DNA from: a virus
Virus record (IMG/VR): IMGVR_UViG_3300046328_000321
Coordinates: 49,369-113,368 of that record
Length of the DNA: 64,000 bases
Reading direction: 5' to 3' (one strand)
Shown: positions 1,717 through 43,711 of the stretch, piece by piece
How the letters are laid out: each line of letters begins with the position of its first letter
Position numbering within the stretch: position 1 is the first letter of the stretch
Notes under the pieces: generated by a model
Told to the model about the DNA's origin: nothing
Databases searched by the model: none
The model's input: only the letters and a program-made list of their open reading frames with translations
Made by a program: the position numbers and the translations under genes

Positions 1717-1790
1717 AGTCGTAATTCTCTGATGAGTTCTGCGACTTTAAATAAAAGAACGAAACACCGTCCACAAGACGGTGTAAGAAA
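1717..1790 (+). ncRNA. Type I hammerhead ribozyme
   Basis: Core CTGATGA 1729-1735; stem II GTTCT/AGAAC; GAAA 1761-1764; stem III CACCGTC/GACGGTG; GTA cleavage triplet ending 1785; stem I TTCT/AGAA; loop II GCGACT can pair with AGTCGT 1717-1722. Confidence 0.9.
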
Positions 1791-7360: not shown

Positions 7361-7969
7361 ATGATTATCAGGTTCAAATCTTACAGCCTAAAATATCGAA
7401 TCTCACCAATGTGTTTCAACGTTTTTCAAAATGGTGGATACCCAAGATTTAAATATAAACATTTTAGACAATTTATTCAACACGCTGGAATGTTGAAAAA
7501 CCATAAAGAAAGTAACATGACAATAGAAATCAAATTTAAAACCCGTAGAGTTGTTAAGAAGAGGTATAAGACTTACAACCCTGTGACCTTTGCTGTTCCC
7601 AAAGAACTAAAGGATAAGATCCGTCGGGTATTTGAGTTGACGATCGCAGCGATCAAGACTAACACTGGTACTGTCACGGATTGGTACAACGTTGCCTTTC
7701 GCACCAAGCATGCTCTTGAGATAGCCAAAGTAGTCTATACAGATGAAACTGTTAAAGAATTTCAAACCATCTTTGACATGTTGGTATTGAAAGCTTCTGA
7801 ACATGAATCGAATCTCAACTGGTTTCGATTCAATGAAAACGAAGTGGCGTTGGTAGAAGACATGCATGAAGCCATGTGTGTGATGGAAGACGATGTTACC
7901 AGACGTATACAGTTAGAAACCATACACATAACTGACAGGTACATGAAACAGTTTATAAACAAATCATGA
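7361..7969 (+). CDS. Hypothetical protein (start may be 7517)
   Basis: ORF behind the promoter motif at ~7295-7331. Confidence 0.6.
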   Translation: MIIRFKSYSLKYRISPMCFNVFQNGGYPRFKYKHFRQFIQHAGMLKNHKESNMTIEIKFKTRRVVKKRYKTYNPVTFAVPKELKDKIRRVFELTIAAIKTNTGTVTDWYNVAFRTKHALEIAKVVYTDETVKEFQTIFDMLVLKASEHESNLNWFRFNENEVALVEDMHEAMCVMEDDVTRRIQLETIHITDRYMKQFINKS

Positions 7970-14191: not shown

Positions 14192-14521
14192 GGCCCGCTG
14201 ATGAAATTGGTAGACATAACGGAAAACCAGAAAGTTAGTCCGCCTTTACTAGTAATAGTAAAGTAAACTGTGGGTGAACTCAGGAGAATCTAAAGCGCAA
14301 GCCATGATAATCGTGAGCCAAGCTAGAAGTACACTTCTAGAAGGTGCAGAGACTACTGGAAAGGTAAAGTCCTTTTAATAACCAGCTAGAGCGCCCACTA
14401 CCGTAATAGAATTTCTATCGGTAAAGAGATAGTCCATGTCCATTGGAAACTTTGGAACACATGCTTAAAATCCGTCGCTTCCGAAAGGAGCATTCCGGTT
14501 CGATTCCGGAGCGGGCCACCA
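14192..14521 (+). tRNA. trnL: tRNA-Leu(UAA) interrupted by a group I intron
   Basis: Joining 14192-14223 to 14464-14521 gives a cloverleaf: acceptor GGCCCGC/GCGGGCC, anticodon arm ACGGA-CTTAAAA-TCCGT, long variable arm, TTCGATT loop, CCA. Confidence 0.88.
14224..14463 (+). ncRNA. ORF-less group I intron (IC3/trnL-like core), 240 nt
   Basis: P AACTCAGGAGAA, Q AATCGTGAGCC, R GTGCAGAGACT, S AAGAGATAGTCC; P3 GTGGGTG/CGCCCAC; terminal G at 14463. Confidence 0.85.
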
Positions 14522-18151: not shown

Positions 18152-18319
18152 AAAATCAATAGAGGATATTGAAAGTACCTATATAGCCTGTAAGGTTTAC
18201 AGAATGTTAATCAACAGCTATTTTAATATTTAGTGAGATTGATCAGAATACCAAGGTCACCCCTGGTATTCTGATTAAATATTTCTTTTTGTAAAAAATC
18301 TCAATAACATATAATATAC

Positions 18320-18727
18320 TTGACAATTCTGTCAAATCCATATAAGGAAAGTATCATGTCCGATGATGTTAAAACAGTAACAGAGTTGAAAGAAAAGATT
18401 GACGCATTCTTGATGTTGGATATACCAACGATCAAGAATGAAAATACTGGAATTGTTTGGTTCAAAGAAAAGAAAGAAACAATCGGATACGCAGTTACTC
18501 CTGTGGATTCTGAATATTCCATAGCTGATGATTGTCCTACCACAGCTTTGTCTTATGAGCTTTCTGGATATTTGATTACCTCTGAAGGACAAGCTTGGTT
18601 TAGAAGACATACCATTCTAAGAACTATTTCTAACGATAATTATAAAATTATCAGAGGAGAATATGATTCTTTCGGCTGGTTGTCAGGTGTGTTGATAACA
18701 CCCAAAGGACGAGTTAGTTTCGGTTAA
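18320..18727 (+). CDS. Hypothetical protein
   Basis: Promoter motif and AAGGA RBS; C-terminal DSFGWL.G..TPKG.V.FG motif. Confidence 0.6.
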   Translation: MTILSNPYKESIMSDDVKTVTELKEKIDAFLMLDIPTIKNENTGIVWFKEKKETIGYAVTPVDSEYSIADDCPTTALSYELSGYLITSEGQAWFRRHTILRTISNDNYKIIRGEYDSFGWLSGVLITPKGRVSFG

Positions 18728-21592: not shown

Positions 21593-23722
21593 GTGAATAT
21601 GTCTAGTAATCCATTTTTGAAATCAGCAGATGAATATGATAGGGATATAGATCCTATCAAACATTATATTTCCCAATCAGCTTATTTTCTTCATAAGCAA
21701 AAAGGTAAATCCATAGCCTACTATGAGGAACAGCTAAGGAAAAAACTGTTTGATGGTTCTATTCCAGATATACGTAACCCCACCGTAACTCATTACGAAC
21801 GTGGAGAAAATGGTGACCGTTATGTTACCAAATCAGGTCTTTATCAATATATCACCGGTGTGCAAAAAACCAATAGAATCATAGCTCCTACATTCACTAC
21901 ATATTTATCATCCAAGGAACAACCTTCTATTCTTGTAGACTTTGTAGACGATAACGTAGCTGGTAGGTCTAAATCTAAGAAAGAAGCATTTGTTGCTAAA
22001 ACAGATGGTAACATGGTGCTGTTTGCCATCAAAGATAATGAACAGAATAATAAGAAGACTTATAATAACTCTTTGTCTGGTGCTTTTGGATCTAAGGGTT
22101 CACCTTTTTATAACCCAACAGCCCACAGTACTTTAACCAGCACAGTCAGAACAGAAAGTTCATTAGGTAATGCACTCAATGAAAAAATCGTAGCTGGCAG
22201 TAGACATTATAAAGACATCCAAACTACTTTAAACAATGTGATTACACTTTCAATGAGTGTGGATCAAGAGTTTAAAAATACTATTCATAAATACAAATTA
22301 CACATGCCTACAATAGATGAGACCATGGATTGTATTCAGTACTCATCTAAGTTGTATTGGTTAGACAGCAGAGGTACTGCCTCTATACGCAGATTAGTAG
22401 AAAAATTAGATGGATATGAAAGAGCTGCTGTGGTTTATATCAGCGATCTTTATCATATTCGTAAACATAATGAAAATTTCATCAGACAATTTTTGTTCAG
22501 AATATCCAGGAAAATTACTGATAAAATTTATGACGAACCCATTAAAGTCATCCATAATCTTGATGAAAGCTTTGTAAATTACGGACATCAGATATGTCAG
22601 ACAGAGATGAGAGGGTTTGGTAAGAAATATAATGAACTTTCTTTAGAATCTGTTAATACCGTAGCTGCTACTTGTGTGAACATAAAAACAATAGTGGATG
22701 AATATCTAGATTTCATAAGAAGTTTTTTTCTAACTAATAACGTACCTGCTAGTACAGCATTTATACCCAACATGATGCGTAGAGCTGTGGTTCTAAGTGA
22801 CACAGATTCCACCATGTTTTCAGTAGATGATTATGTGCAATGGTATTTTGGCGAATTGTGTTTTCACGATGAGGCTTTTGCAATAGCAGGTGCTGTAGTT
22901 TTTTTGGCTACTCAATGTATCGCGCATACGTTGGCTATTTTTTCTTCCAACATGGGTGTGGATAAGAAAAAGCTTTTTCAGATAGCTATGAAACCAGAGT
23001 TTGTGTTTCCTGTATTTGCCCAAACACCTGTATCTAAACATTATTTTACTTTTAAAACCATTCAAGAAGGTAATGTTTATAAGAAACCAGATTTTGAAAT
23101 CAAAGGTGTGCATCTGAAAAATTCCGCTTCCCCAGTGGAAGTGATTAAAGATGCCACAGGTTTGATGGAGAAATTACTTTTAGATATTTACGCAGGTAAG
23201 AAAATTAGATTGGCTGAAGTGATTAAACATATAGCCGATCTAGAAAAAACCATTATTAAATCTTTGCTTACTGGTGAGGTTACTTATTATAAGAGAAGTA
23301 AAGTCAAATCCAAAGAAAGTTATTCTCAAGATGAGGATCAGTCTAATTTTAAATGGCATAAATTTTGGCAACTTGTTTTTCAACCTACATATGGTGAAAT
23401 ACCCCTACCACCTTACAGTGTTTTGAAAGTACCAACCACAGTGACCAATATCACTGGGTATAAAGAGTGGTTAGATAAGATAGATAACGATTCTTTTAAG
23501 CAAGCTTTAATGGGATGGATGGCATCCCGTAATAAAGTAGATTTACCTACTTTATATATACCCATGGATTATGTATTAGCTAGAGGTATGCCTAAAGAAG
23601 CTTTGGCTGTGTTAGATGCAGAAAAAATTGTATTGGATCTTACAAGTACGTATAGACTTATATTAGGCAGTTTGGGATTTTACGGTAAAACAAACATGTC
23701 TTTGACAGCTCAAGGTTATTAA
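21593..23722 (+). CDS. Jumbo-phage family B DNA polymerase, polymerase subunit (phiKZ gp50-like)
   Basis: K..NNS.SG, SDTDS, KHY, EIKGVHL motifs; synteny. Confidence 0.88.
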   Translation: MNMSSNPFLKSADEYDRDIDPIKHYISQSAYFLHKQKGKSIAYYEEQLRKKLFDGSIPDIRNPTVTHYERGENGDRYVTKSGLYQYITGVQKTNRIIAPTFTTYLSSKEQPSILVDFVDDNVAGRSKSKKEAFVAKTDGNMVLFAIKDNEQNNKKTYNNSLSGAFGSKGSPFYNPTAHSTLTSTVRTESSLGNALNEKIVAGSRHYKDIQTTLNNVITLSMSVDQEFKNTIHKYKLHMPTIDETMDCIQYSSKLYWLDSRGTASIRRLVEKLDGYERAAVVYISDLYHIRKHNENFIRQFLFRISRKITDKIYDEPIKVIHNLDESFVNYGHQICQTEMRGFGKKYNELSLESVNTVAATCVNIKTIVDEYLDFIRSFFLTNNVPASTAFIPNMMRRAVVLSDTDSTMFSVDDYVQWYFGELCFHDEAFAIAGAVVFLATQCIAHTLAIFSSNMGVDKKKLFQIAMKPEFVFPVFAQTPVSKHYFTFKTIQEGNVYKKPDFEIKGVHLKNSASPVEVIKDATGLMEKLLLDIYAGKKIRLAEVIKHIADLEKTIIKSLLTGEVTYYKRSKVKSKESYSQDEDQSNFKWHKFWQLVFQPTYGEIPLPPYSVLKVPTTVTNITGYKEWLDKIDNDSFKQALMGWMASRNKVDLPTLYIPMDYVLARGMPKEALAVLDAEKIVLDLTSTYRLILGSLGFYGKTNMSLTAQGY

Positions 23723-28548: not shown

Positions 28549-31380
28549 ATGCCTGTCATACAGGAAATCATTCAGTTTGATGATATGTTTCATAAACTAC
28601 ATCACACACCTACTCTTATTAACCACATAGCTTGCGCCACATTGGAAGATAGGGAGAAGGTAAAAGAAATTCTTACCACTCATCTTAACAGTGATCAGAT
28701 AAGTTTAGTACCTTCATGTCAATGCGGAGCTACTAAAGGTGAATATTCCAAGAGTATGGTTTGTCCCGTCTGTAATACAGAAGTAAAAACTTCTGTGACT
28801 ACAGATATCGAACCAGTAGTCTGGCTGAAGCAACCAGAGAGTGTGGATAAGTTGATCAGTCCTATCTTTCTGATGATGTTAATCAAAAGGTTTACCAAAT
28901 CAGGATTCTCAGTGATCGAATGGTTATGTAATACAAATTACTCTTCGACATCTAAACCTCCTGATAAAGTATTAGCTAAAATCCAGACATGTGGGATTGA
29001 ACGAGGTTATAACAACTTCGTTAGGAATTTTGATCCTATTATGGATTTGTTGTTTTCATTCATTGAGTTTGCTCCTAAAACTCAAAAGTTTGAAATGAAA
29101 CAAGAAGACAAAATAGATCATTTACAACAACTAATCAGAGATCACAGAAACGCGATCTTTAGTGAGTATTTACCCATCCCAAATAAGATCATTTTGATCT
29201 TTGACACCCAGCCATTAGGGACTTATACTGATCCTTCAGTAATGAAAGCTGTGGATGCTATTAACACAATGGTGTCCATTGATCGAGATTTCTATGATCA
29301 GAGTTCAAAAACCAAACAGAACCGTACGATCAAAGCTTTGATGTTACTTTGTGATTTTTATAACGATACCTTATTGTTAATGGCACATAAGCATGGTCAT
29401 TTCCGTAAGCACATGTTTGGTAGTAGAACCAATTTTTCTTTCCGAGCTGTAATCACATCGATTACAGCCGGTAAGAATTATGATGAGATCGAAGCTCCAT
29501 GGTGTATGGCAATCACAGCATTCCGTATTCATTTGTTGAATAAACTTTTGAAATACGGTATGGGTCATAACGAAGGGTTAGGATTTTTGTATAAACATAC
29601 GTACAAACACCATTCTCTTCTGGAAAGATTCATGCAGGAGATGATTGATGAGACCCCAATGAAAGGTATTTTCATTTGTTTGCAACGCAATTAACTATTT
29701 AGGTTGCCTTTATCAGTAATGGTAAAGTAAAATTCTCCTTAATTGACGGGAACATCCTGCTAAAAACTTGTACACCAAACTACAATAGAAATATATGTAG
29801 CGGCCAAGGTAACTACTTGGGTATGGTAAAAGAAACAAGTCTGGGATAATCCGCAGCCGAACTCTTAACCAGAAATGGAAAGAGATGGGTTCAACGACTA
29901 GTCGAAAGACGTAACTCTTAGCAAGAGTGAAACAGGAGACCCCTTTTGTATAAAAGGGTGAAGATATAGTCTGCTCTCGTATGAATAATACGAGCGGGTG
30001 TCGTAGCACACCGGGTAAAGAGAGTAAGCTGTTTAAGCTGAGCGACTTTACTGGACAATGGCCGAGTTTGTTACAAGGGTCAGCTCAACGAGTGAAAATC
30101 ACAAAGTTCAAAACTAACCCTATGGACTTGACTATAGGGATGCACATCTTAACAGTGCGTGCTAATCATTATTGGCATTTAACCAGGTAACTGGTTAAAG
30201 AATCTCTTCGAATTGCTGGAAACTCCTTAGAGTCTCATTACCACTGCGAGCTGTAAAGCAAAGCCACGGTTTAAAAAGTATGAGAATTGGACAATCAGCA
30301 GCGAAACTTCCTACGGGAAGTACGTTCAACGATCATCGGAGTTACGCCCGAGTAGAACCTCAAGCGAGGAAGAAGTGGAGAGCACCCTACTATTTATGAG
30401 GGTGAAGATATGATCTGTTCCTGTATGAAAATACAGGCGGGTGTCTTAGCACACCGAGTAAAGAGAGTAAGCTATTATAGCTGAGCGGCTTTACTGGACA
30501 ATAAGCCAAATGCTGATCAAAAGGTCCTCTTAACTTGCGAAGGTTAAGATGTATTTCCTGAATTGCTGGGAACTCTCGTTAGACTGTTGAACTAAAGCGG
30601 AGTGTGAAAACACAAACGTAAATGTTTGAAAATCAGCAGGTAGAGACAATCAGCAGCTAAGACGCTAAAGACAGTTGTGAAACTGGCTATGCGTAAAGTT
30701 CAACGACTATCCGGTAGCACGGAGTAGACCCATGAGGGTCAAAGTAGGAAACGTCTCTAGGAAGACGGTGATATAGTCTGCTCTCACATGAGAATGTGAG
30801 CGGGTGTCAAAGCACACCGGGTGAGGAATCGAAAGATGGCTTCACTGGACAAAAGGTTTGATGGTAGAGTATTGCCATCTCTAAACATTCTTAACTGCGG
30901 GAAACTCCTTAGAGCTTTGTTGACCAACCTGTGGTAGAAATACACACAGCGGCTGAACTAACTATTCAGATATGGTAAAACTAACAAAGATTGGACAATC
31001 CGCACCGAAGCTCCTAACTAAGTATATTAACATATACTTACATGGAGTGTGGCCAACGACTATCCCGTAAGGGAGTACACTCAAGCGAGTGGAAACAGAA
31101 TGTACCGAAAGGTAAAGATATAGTCTAATCAGATATGAAAGTATCTGGATCCTTAAGCAAGATCGATGAGTAGTAGCGTACTCAGGTTGGTGCTAGAGAG
31201 TTATGGTTTATGGATGCTCTCAACGTATCCATAGCTCTTGATCAGAAAATGTCAGATATGTGGTATCCACTTTCACCGGAGTTCAACATCTTCCAAATGA
31301 CAAAACCATTTCAAGTATCGGGAAACATAGCGATCCCTAAACCTAACATCGCTACCATTTCATCTTGGTTGGAAAACTAG
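28549..31380 (+). CDS. nvRNAP beta' catalytic subunit (phiKZ gp55-like), spliced, ~477 aa; exons 28549-29691, 30062-30163, 30506-30517, 30857-30865, 31213-31380
   Basis: N-terminal zinc ribbon, RKH.FG.R..FS.RAVI; splicing restores QRN-PSL and PNAD-FDG-D in frame. Confidence 0.93.
29692..30061 (+). ncRNA. Group I intron 1 of nvRNAP beta' (370 nt, ORF-less)
   Basis: P1 GCAAT/GTTGC with U.G; P AATTGACGGGAA, Q AATCCGCAGC, R GTTCAACGACTA, S AAGATATAGTCT; terminal G. Confidence 0.92.
30164..30505 (+). ncRNA. Group I intron 2 of nvRNAP beta' (342 nt, ORF-less)
   Basis: P1 GTGCT/GGCAT; AATTGCTGGAA, AATCAGCAGC, GTTCAACGATCA, AAGATATGATCT; terminal G. Confidence 0.92.
30518..30856 (+). ncRNA. Group I intron 3 of nvRNAP beta' (339 nt, ORF-less)
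   Basis: Short P1 GAT/GTC; AATTGCTGGGA, AATCAGCAGC, GTTCAACGACTA, GATATAGTCT; terminal G. Confidence 0.9.
30866..31212 (+). ncRNA. Group I intron 4 of nvRNAP beta' (347 nt, ORF-less)
   Basis: P1 GATGGT/GCCATC; P10 AGAGTATT/GATGCTCT; AACTGCGGGA, AATCCGCACC, CAACGACTA, AAGATATAGTCT; terminal G. Confidence 0.92.
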
Positions 31381-41242: not shown

Positions 41243-43711
41243 ACTGAAACTTCAATATGTGGGTATACAAGGACTTAATTCTTACTGTATGCATAATTCA
41301 TCATCACGAGCTGTGATGTTTTCTTCTCACATTGGACAACGTCTGGTAATTGAAGGAGCTCAACAGAAACTTGTACAAACTGGGCTTGAACAAGAATTTG
41401 GTAAATATACGTTCAATGTCAAGATGCCTGAGAATGGTCGTATTGTTGCTATCTTAGACAGGTATCCTCGTGGTGTAGGTAGTAAATCTCTTAATTTCAA
41501 TCCAGAGACCTATGTCTTCTTTGAACGTGAAGACAACAAGCAAGTAGATTATATTCTCATCCCGTACAAAGCTCAGTTCCATCAGAATTTTGGTTTTAAG
41601 TACAAGATGAATAAGAAAAATATCGGAAAGCTTCAGCCAGGTGCTTATATTGCAAAAGATACTATTTTTGCAGACAGTCCTGCTGTTTCTGACAATGGTA
41701 ATTTCATGTTTGGTATCAATGCCAACATTGCCCTGATGTCCATTCCCTCAGTGGCTGAAGATGGCATTATGATCTCCAGAGACTTTCTACCTAAGTTAAA
41801 GTTCAAGATTTATGATACTCGACAAGTCAACTTTGGATCTAAACAATTTCCATTGAACCTTTATGGTACTTTGGATGAAGTAAAACCATTTCCTGAGATC
41901 GGAGATAAGATTCGAGAAGATGGTATTTTGATGGCTTTTAGAGACTTTAACACAGCTCTGTCTCCTGTTGAAATGTCTAAGATGGATTTAATGGAAGTAG
42001 ATCACACTTTTGATGAATGTGTATATGTACGAGGTGGTGTGGGTACTGTGGTTGACATTAAGATTACCAGAAACAACTCACCTATTAAGAACATGCCTGT
42101 GGAAATGTCATGTTATCTGAACCGTTACTGGGAAGCCAATCAAGCTTTTTATAAGAAAGTTATTGATTTAGAAGCCGGTCTGCGTAAAGATAACCGAATG
42201 AAATTTGGAACCACTGATATTTTAACAACATCAAAGTTTGATAAATTAGTTTATGAGGCTATGGTGCATACTAACCATAACTTCAATCAGTTTAAACAAC
42301 CTCTTCAACTCCAATCACGTAAGTCTACTGTAGACGAATACCAGATACAATTTACTATTGAATACACCATTGAACCCTGTGAAGGATTCAAATTGACTGA
42401 TAATCACGGTTTTTACTAGCCGCTTTTGACAGAGATGTCAATCGATCATTTTCCTAATTGCGGGGAACCACCTAAAGCTTCATTGACCAACTTAGTTACG
42501 AAAGTAAGTTAAGGGCTACGCTAACTACGTAGGTATGGTAAAACTAATGAAGATATATGGGCAATCCGCACCGAAGCTCCTAACTAAGTATATTAACATA
42601 TACTTACATGGAGTGTGGCCAACGACTATCCCGTAAGGGAGTAGGCTCATGAGAGTCGAAATGGAAAGCGTCCTACTGTTGAACAGAGGATGAAGATATA
42701 GTCTGTTCCTACATGAAAGTGTGGGTGGGTGTCACAGCACACCGGGTGAAGAATCGAAAGACGGCTTCACTGGACAAAAAGGGAAAAGGTGTTATTTGTA
42801 AAGTAGAAGAACCTGAGAACATGCCTGTCGATGAAAATGGCAACCGTGCCGACATCGTCATGGATGCAGCTTCTACTATCTCACGTATGAACTTAGGCAG
42901 GCTTTACGAGCAACACATGGCATCTGCCTTGCGCGACGTTACTCAAAATGTTCGCATGTTGTTTGGATTTGAACGATTGAAACCAACATCCATTAAAGCT
43001 GAGAATTTGCTAGACAGTTTTCCAATTCAAAAGATCGAAGAAGCTCATCAGTACGTGTTAGGTTTCTATAACCTTATTTCAGAAAAGCAATATAACTTTT
43101 ATTCTAAACTGACAGATCCTAAGCAAATTGCCGAGCATATCTGTGATATCATATCCGATCACGTTTATGCATATATTCCTATTGATAAACAGATCAGTAG
43201 TAAAGATATCGTGAAACGCATCGAGAATTCCATATACAAACCCGTTTATGGAAAAATTACCTATCGAGGTAATTCTGGTGAGGTCGTGCTTACTGAACGA
43301 AATGTGCGCATTGCTCCTTTATACATGATGTTATTGGAAAAAATCGCTGATGATTGGACAGCTGTAGCCACTGGTAATCTTCAGCTACATGGTTTACTGG
43401 CTCAGGTCAACAGACGTGAAAAGCATTCAAGACCTCATAGGAACACTCCTGTTCGCACCATCGGTGAAACAGAGGGACGTTTATTTGTAGGTTATTGTGG
43501 AAGAGAAGCGGTCGCTGAGATGTTGGATCGTTCAGGTAATCCTCTTGTACAAAGACACATGACTAGGAACATTCTTGAAGCCAATCGTCCAACAAATATC
43601 AATGAGATTGTAGATCGTAACTTGGTTAACTACGGTAATACCAAGTCTGTACAGATCATCAACCATATGTTTACTTGTATGGGTTTTAAAACCAAATACG
43701 TTCCAGAATGA
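41229..43711 (+). CDS. nvRNAP beta subunit (phiKZ gp71-73-like), spliced, ~703 aa; exons 41229-42410 and 42782-43711
   Basis: SSSRAVM, EDG; splicing restores KLTDNHG-GKGVIC; SRMNLG and GETE motifs. Confidence 0.92.
42411..42781 (+). ncRNA. Group I intron of nvRNAP beta (371 nt, ORF-less)
   Basis: P1 CGGT/GCCG with U.G; AATTGCGGGGAA, AATCCGCACC, CAACGACTA, AAGATATAGTCT; terminal G. Confidence 0.92.

Follow-up and report, generated by a model that had tools for sequence, protein, structure and literature searches.

A predicted pseudoknotted type I hammerhead ribozyme heading a structured non-coding RNA in a chimallin-encoding jumbo phage

Hammerhead ribozymes have been known in phages since 2011. 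In the phage genome fragment studied here, a hammerhead-like element lies in a 550-nt gap between two convergent genes, a + strand ORF ending at 1625 and a - strand ORF ending at 2174. This raises the question whether the element is a ribozyme, and what it could be doing between the ends of two genes. Coordinates refer to the window, the whole stretch of 64,000 nucleotides that was analysed, unless a locus or an accession is named.

The source is a 113-kb IMG/VR record (CheckV, 43% complete). A homologue of chimallin, the nuclear shell protein (PF25677, 26554-28389), was identified in the window together with a divergent family B DNA polymerase (21593-23722), and the record was therefore regarded as part of the genome of a nucleus-forming jumbo phage. 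Among cultured phages, Burkholderia phage FLC9 has the best relative of the chimallin (34% identity). In addition, six group I introns were detected by Rfam (62-88 bits; 29691-31147, 14208-14456 and 42401-42725), four of which stand head to tail within 1.5 kb directly after the ORF 28549-29694.

The element itself could be divided into the following parts:

1717-1790, + strand: probable type I hammerhead ribozyme, with stem I at 1725-1728/1786-1789 and core at 1729-1735 and 1761-1763
1717-1723, + strand: 5' strand of the pseudoknot, AGUCGUA, whose partner is the first bases of loop II (1740/1741-1746)
1725-1728 and 1786-1789, + strand: stem I, UUCU/AGAA, 4 bp, open
1729-1735, + strand: core CUGAUGA, equal to C3-A9
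1736-1740 and 1756-1760, + strand: stem II, GUUCU/AGAAC, 5 bp
1741-1755, + strand: loop II, 15 nt, starting with GCGACU
1761-1763, + strand: core GAA, equal to G12-A14
1764-1771 and 1777-1784, + strand: stem III, 8 bp including A15.1-U16.1, with a 5-nt loop
1785-1786, + strand: predicted self-cleavage site between A1785 (position 17) and A1786 (position 1.1), placed by hammerhead numbering

From 5' to 3' on the + strand, the order within 1717-1790 is AGUCGUA, AUUCU, CUGAUGA, GUUCU, loop II, AGAAC, GAAA, CACCGUC, CACAA, GACGGUG, UA and AGAAAU, with CACAA forming the loop of stem III between CACCGUC and GACGGUG. All invariant bases of the type I core were found in place (C3 U4 G5 A6 N7 G8 A9, G12 A13 A14, and the A15.1-U16.1 pair, which is A1764-U1784), and the cleavage triplet is GUA, so that position 17 is A1785 and not G. 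Stems II and III are closed by loops, stem I is open, and the modelled pairs are all standard. The side of stem I is joined to that of stem II by a pseudoknot of 6-7 bp, in which AGUCGU (1717-1722) pairs with GCGACU (1741-1746), one of the pairs being G.U, and A1723-U1740 is a possible seventh pair. An earlier note, made from the sequence alone, had described a type I hammerhead with a loop II pseudoknot that would cleave after A1785; the architecture was borne out, and hammerhead numbering applied to the sequence puts the predicted cut at the same place. Judged in silico, 1717-1790 is very probably a self-cutting hammerhead ribozyme of a known kind. Hammerhead cleavage leaves a 2',3'-cyclic phosphate on the upstream piece and a 5'-OH on the downstream RNA.

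Both stem I and stem II are short and rich in A and U; when pseudoknots are disallowed, the minimum free energy (MFE) fold favours the pseudoknot helix alone. The segment 1717-1723 could either pair with loop II or form a weak extension of stem I.

Such weak stems might belong to a chance look-alike, or to a decayed and inactive relic in an intergenic region that works without cleavage; moreover, rare chance motifs are to be expected somewhere among very many windows scanned. The frequency of the motif speaks against this reading. A descriptor of the core plus three stems matched a single site in the window, which was also the single site in the whole 113-kb record. A loose descriptor gave 0.01 matches per window in 400 dinucleotide-preserving shuffles, and a strict one, with stems as long as the real ones, gave none (0/400 dinucleotide shuffles); rough arithmetic, not the output of a tool, set the chance at ~6e-6 per window.

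Relatives of the element were obtained by several routes. A stem II pattern led to nine IMG/VR loci, nearly all of them well-formed hammerheads and mostly of type I. BLAST started from one of these (L010) turned up intergenic elements that carry no annotation in Pseudomonas phage ZC08 and in Klebsiella phage Miami and its relatives, while a pattern search of chimallin-encoding phages revealed an element in Erwinia phage RAY, from which BLAST reached phage AH06. Two of them were located as follows:

KU356691, about 42366-42435: hammerhead of ZC08, unannotated
MT701590, about 222402-222480: hammerhead of Miami, unannotated

A common register was observed in the studied element, ZC08, L008-L011, RAY and AH06: the 5' pseudoknot strand stops 6 nt short of C3 and has the first bases of loop II as its partner, and beyond these loop II is rich in A. 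The studied element and ZC08 do not differ in the sequence of pseudoknot and loop II (AGUCG / CGACUUUAAAU). One such ribozyme per genome was found in ZC08, Miami, RAY and two complete or near-complete uncultured jumbo phages, and the studied record likewise carries exactly one.

Searches starting from the locus and its neighbours had a different outcome. When the region was compared by BLAST with 50,697 phage records, no match appeared, near or distant. Viral contigs were also scanned with the 194-aa and 1135-aa neighbour proteins, and with the 1135-aa protein aligned to its relatives, and nothing was found. A metagenome scan with the neighbour proteins gave five loci, none with a hammerhead or a similar RNA. 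The closest relatives were at 66-45% identity, and a relative at 44% identity (L012) had neither gap nor hammerhead at the syntenic place. By pattern search, no such hammerhead was present in Burkholderia phage FLC9, Bacillus phage AgentSmith, Xanthomonas phage LucasX or Ralstonia phage RSF1, with a positive control that worked.

The Rfam models are also silent, which would suit a chance motif or a relic. An Infernal search with the Rfam hammerhead models, the check suggested in the earlier note, did not call the element: no hammerhead above threshold was given by gathering-score and E-value scans of the window and of 1600-1900, the best hammerhead score was 13.9 bits against a cut-off of 48.5 and came from a mis-permuted type III match, and RF00163 and RF02276 gave nothing at E<=10 on the whole record. 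The elements of ZC08, Miami, RAY, AH06 and L010 were missed by these models as well. Rfam detected three of the nine pattern-found IMG/VR loci, and the gathering score was reached by one only (L006, a type III match with 52.3 bits against the cut-off of 48.5). Because clear phage relatives were missed too, the result was attributed to a blind spot of the models instead of a flaw in the motif; a whole phage subfamily is overlooked by the current Rfam hammerhead models.

Two covariance models were built from other phages. Since MAFFT failed to align the variable 3' halves of the hammerheads, the first model (R1) was seeded from the ZC08 element alone; it found 1714-1793 with 38.8 bits and E=1.5e-9, all modelled pairs being standard and the next match having E=1.2. 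Stem II of ZC08 differs from that of the studied element, yet ZC08 had been reached through the stem II pattern (by BLAST with L010). The second model (R2), made from ten other phage hammerheads with the studied element excluded, gave 49.1 bits and E=7.9e-13 and no other match in the window at E<=10, a score that is inflated by the fact that 8 of the 10 training sequences had been found by a pattern taken from the stem II of the studied element.

The helices also covary. In an alignment of 13 sequences, in which stems I-III were fitted to the model and the pseudoknot was outside it, 92% of the cells were paired, compared with 68% in shuffles and ~35% with slid partners. Compensatory changes were present in 15 of 21 pairs, and all four helices covaried, pseudoknot included. 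Across the family the pseudoknot helix was 82% paired, with compensatory changes in four of its seven pairs, such as CGUCG/CGACG in RAY against CGUCU/AGACG in AH06. A test by best complementarity anywhere, with the flank shuffled, was uninformative, both partners being AU-rich, and support for the pseudoknot comes from the fixed-register and covariation tests. With the shuffle counts and rough estimate above, the E-values of 1.5e-9 and 7.9e-13 from models of other phages, an intact invariant core, a pseudoknot in the exact register of the family, and a structured RNA behind the element as behind its relatives, a look-alike or relic is very improbable.

What follows the ribozyme was then the second part of the question. 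The gap holds these further features:

1633-1679, + strand: promoter-/operator-like block, TTGTAA, 17 nt, TACTAT, then a TTGAC-N6-GTCAA palindrome
1786-2114, + strand: structured non-coding RNA of about 327 nt, predicted to be released by the ribozyme
1935-1941, + strand: motif 1, AAGUUGU, a predicted single-stranded joiner after the long hairpin 1875-1934
1966-2018, + strand: conserved domain with motif 2, GCAGCC (1969-1974); outer helix AGCA/UGCU, small internal loop and long inner helix
2026-2118, + strand: terminal stem, a perfect 15 bp (2026-2040/2089-2103) with branched interior, then 11 T
2131-2164, either strand: bidirectional hairpin terminator, 15 bp; it ends the convergent - strand gene 2174-2758 and is a second stop for the RNA gene

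The earlier note had stated that there is no downstream + strand ORF, and this holds, as no + strand ORF of at least 30 aa exists between 1626 and 2258. The sole one there has 29 aa and starts at the AUG inside CUGAUGA; it has no ribosome-binding site, and a protein-coding reading of it was rejected. The downstream RNA contains no credible ORF. In contrast to shuffled sequences, 1786-2180 folds strongly (MFE -139 kcal/mol vs -89+/-5 in shuffles, z=-9.4), and the + strand of the downstream RNA folds ~10 kcal/mol better than the - strand. Its GC content is 0.41-0.42, compared with 0.33-0.36 in the flanks. The 15-bp stem with the T-run is likely the 3' end and terminator of the RNA, and the T-run fits transcription of the + strand. 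The proposal of the earlier note that the ribozyme makes the 5' end of a downstream RNA thus gains in silico support from an ORF-free fold, a terminator of its own and the same layout in other phages, all pointing to a predicted non-coding RNA.

Stem III could be given another meaning, namely that the hairpin 1764-1784 is mainly an intrinsic terminator of the - strand and the hammerhead-like bases are incidental. A terminator scan does call it, with 9 pairs, 5 of them G-C, and a T-rich tail, and UUCGUUCUUU follows the reverse complement of stem III. However, this tail is no more than GAAA and the A-rich loop II read as their complement, and any family member would therefore show such a tail on the other strand, those in + strand tRNA operons included. 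For the - strand gene, the strong terminator 2164-2131 already provides an end about 350 nt before the hairpin is reached, while CUGAUGA, stems I and II and the pseudoknot would be left unexplained. The G.U pairs and the folding energy favour the + strand, and a terminator as the main role of the hairpin is extremely improbable.

Upstream, the earlier note had placed a phage promoter. A promoter-like block is indeed present at 1633-1679, but its assignment as a promoter is tentative: the 47-nt block occurs in two copies only in the 113-kb record (1633-1679 and 18289-18335), a sigma-70 scan does not call the copy at 1633-1679, and TTGAC-N6-GTCAA is found in each. Because TTGACA is half of this palindrome, the block may be an operator or a 5' hairpin. 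The copy at 18289-18335 precedes a protein gene of about 123 aa, and the presence of the block before both this gene and the RNA unit suggests, by sequence, a shared control.

Whether the downstream RNA has relatives of its own was approached by several searches. On 1780-2250, Rfam gave no family, at gathering score or at E<=10, with the GOLLD and ROOL models included. Nothing was found by blastn and nhmmer of the downstream RNA, and a sequence profile of the related RNAs gave no match. In RNAs behind the hammerheads of ZC08, L062, L081/L085, L010, L011, RAY and AH06, AAGUUGU occurs at +120 to +150 and GCAGCC at +178 to +209 after the predicted cut, and the studied RNA has them in the same order at +150 and +184, so the motif pair is common to it and to the RNAs behind the hammerhead in five other phage lineages. 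A 6-mer common to 6/6 lineages was seen in 0/2000 shuffles. In the window a single match to the composite AAGTTGT-N15-75-GCAGCC was seen, and all its matches in 1.23 Mb of fetched phage DNA stand behind these hammerheads; if the other lineages are used to define the motifs, a match in the studied RNA has an a priori chance of about 3e-5.

Independent MFE folds of eight RNAs gave a hint of a common structure, in which GCAGCC ends an outer helix (..GCA/UGC..), followed by a small internal loop and a long inner helix. The layout is alike in all eight, and the inner-helix sequences differ between lineages. A covariance model of the GCAGCC domain (R3), built on a poor MAFFT alignment, scored the studied copy at 7.8 bits (E=0.059 within 395 nt) and gave nothing over the whole window. 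RNAs of the AAGUUGU...GCAGCC group are defined as starting at the cut of a pseudoknotted type I hammerhead, as the studied RNA is predicted to do, and the studied RNA is a probable member of this family by its motifs. These RNAs are uncatalogued, in that no RNA catalogue has them.

The same type of hammerhead was also observed in front of other RNAs:

L004:6186-7093 and L007:5724-6580, - strand: pseudoknotted type I hammerhead with GOLLD (RF02032, 190-202 bits)
L003:1424-1510 and L009:6032-6129 (-): hammerheads in phage tRNA arrays

GOLLD lies directly 3' of the hammerhead in L004 and L007, where the predicted cut is about 380 nt ahead of the part of GOLLD covered by Rfam. The RNAs behind L003 and L009 are tRNAs; in L003 the predicted cut is 1 nt before the tRNA 5' end, with the acceptor strand of the tRNA forming part of stem I, and in L009 it is 8 nt before the tRNA. 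Different RNAs again stand behind the same hammerhead type in L077, L099 and L076/L094. GOLLD or ROOL was considered as the identity of the studied RNA and rejected, for there was no match even at E<=10 in 1780-2250.

Some neighbouring elements were recorded in addition. L005 carries a pistol ribozyme between small protein genes (7407-7472, - strand; 42 bits, above threshold), and ~1 kb downstream of it, also on the - strand, comes a type I hammerhead. In RAY, a partial Y-RNA-like (YrlA) match of 44.5 bits, below threshold, lies ~1.1 kb upstream of the hammerhead. Small CDSs of hypothetical proteins are annotated over the hammerhead-led RNA in Miami (L052; CPT_Miami_268/269), AH06 (L054; AH06_220), Ea35-70 and Simmy50. 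In Miami and AH06 they are on the strand opposite to the RNA, and these CDSs are probably mis-calls.

Taken together, the locus may be a family case. The broader reading is that an undescribed RNA family of ~250-330 nt exists in single copy in unrelated phage lineages (N4-like ZC08, the nucleus-forming RAY and AH06, the studied chimallin phage and several uncultured jumbo phages), with a pseudoknotted type I hammerhead at its 5' end, single-stranded AAGUUGU plus GCAGCC, and an irregular hairpin domain, the hammerhead serving also as a portable end maker for GOLLD and tRNAs. We lean towards this reading, by a little more than an even balance. If it is true, the RNA would play an important role in infection and would require an exact 5'-OH end.

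For the locus itself, our explanation is held with good confidence: a pseudoknotted type I hammerhead would cut after A1785 and free a structured RNA of ~327 nt with a fixed 5'-OH in a chimallin jumbo phage. In it we infer transcription, the actual cleavage and the purpose of the RNA. A small transcription unit without ORF would lie between the two convergent genes and start in or just after the 1633-1679 block. When the leader is transcribed, AGUCGU(A) would pair with the start of loop II, the pseudoknot would keep stems I and II, both short, next to each other, and the core would cut after A1785. A co-transcriptional cut would discard the leader and leave an RNA from 1786 to about 2114 whose 5'-OH is fixed whatever lies upstream, and which would terminate at the 15-bp stem and T-run. 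In the preferred reading the ribozyme would be an end-maker and insulator, the exact 5' end being needed for the fold or stability of the RNA, and such a portable 5'-end maker could work behind a promoter, as in the studied phage, or behind tRNAs, as in ZC08.

The ribozyme could also be real and regulatory, with a switch between active and inactive folds that sets the level or timing of the RNA, or with the leader as the functional product. The two pairing choices of 1717-1723, with loop II or as a weak extension of stem I, would allow a switch, and the operator-like palindrome is common to the RNA unit and one protein gene. On the other hand, what precedes the ribozyme in relatives is tRNAs or other sequences, and no leader is conserved; conservation is seen in the RNA behind the ribozyme and not in the part before it. 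No ligand-binding or sensor element is evident either, and this role appears unlikely. As an end-maker, the ribozyme would be tied to one clear job, the cutting of the front end of a dedicated and strongly folded non-coding RNA (predicted). The ribozyme-plus-RNA unit is also present in cultured, tractable phages, ZC08 on Pseudomonas aeruginosa and RAY on Erwinia amylovora.

In the literature searched, no paper was found to connect hammerheads with either jumbo phages or GOLLD, apart from incidental co-mention. Pseudoknots occur in about 40% of hammerheads, in all three types, and are needed for fast hammerhead cleavage, and phages and prophages contain many hammerheads (Perreault et al. 2011, PMC3088659). 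Because many phage hammerheads and pseudoknots are reported there, the ribozyme could be assigned to a known kind. With the bacterial and phage pseudoknotted hammerheads (PMC3088659; Rfam CL00010, type I RF00163) it shares the core, three helices and an intergenic site in a phage, and in both a Watson-Crick pseudoknot links the sides of stems I and II in place of loop-loop contacts. It differs in that its pseudoknot is formed by loop II and a 5' tail beyond an open 4-bp stem I, in that it scores below every Rfam hammerhead threshold, and in that it stands in front of a non-coding RNA gene of its own instead of between mRNAs.

Among the new relatives, ZC08, Miami, RAY and AH06 all have the same architecture and register and an ORF-free structured RNA behind the hammerhead, as in the studied phage. 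ZC08 is N4-like, and its unit is inside a tRNA operon with tRNAs after it. In the hammerheads of RAY (L028:1487-1690) and AH06 (L054), stem III is enlarged by an insertion of ~130 nt, and behind the Miami hammerhead the RNA is longer, with motif 1 preserved in part only. Unlike all four, the studied unit has a promoter-like block and a terminator of its own.

GOLLD (RF02032) and ROOL are likewise phage-borne (or carried by prophages) and strongly structured, and often lie near tRNAs; they have 600-800 nt, whereas the studied RNA has about 327 nt. Of the two GOLLD loci, L004 has neither motif and L007 has a single copy of motif 1, far outside the family position. HDV-like theta ribozymes adjoin phage tRNAs and assist in tRNA maturation. 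Thus a small self-cleaving ribozyme sets the end of a stable phage non-coding RNA there, as is predicted here, while the ribozyme class, the end that is set and the cargo RNA are others.
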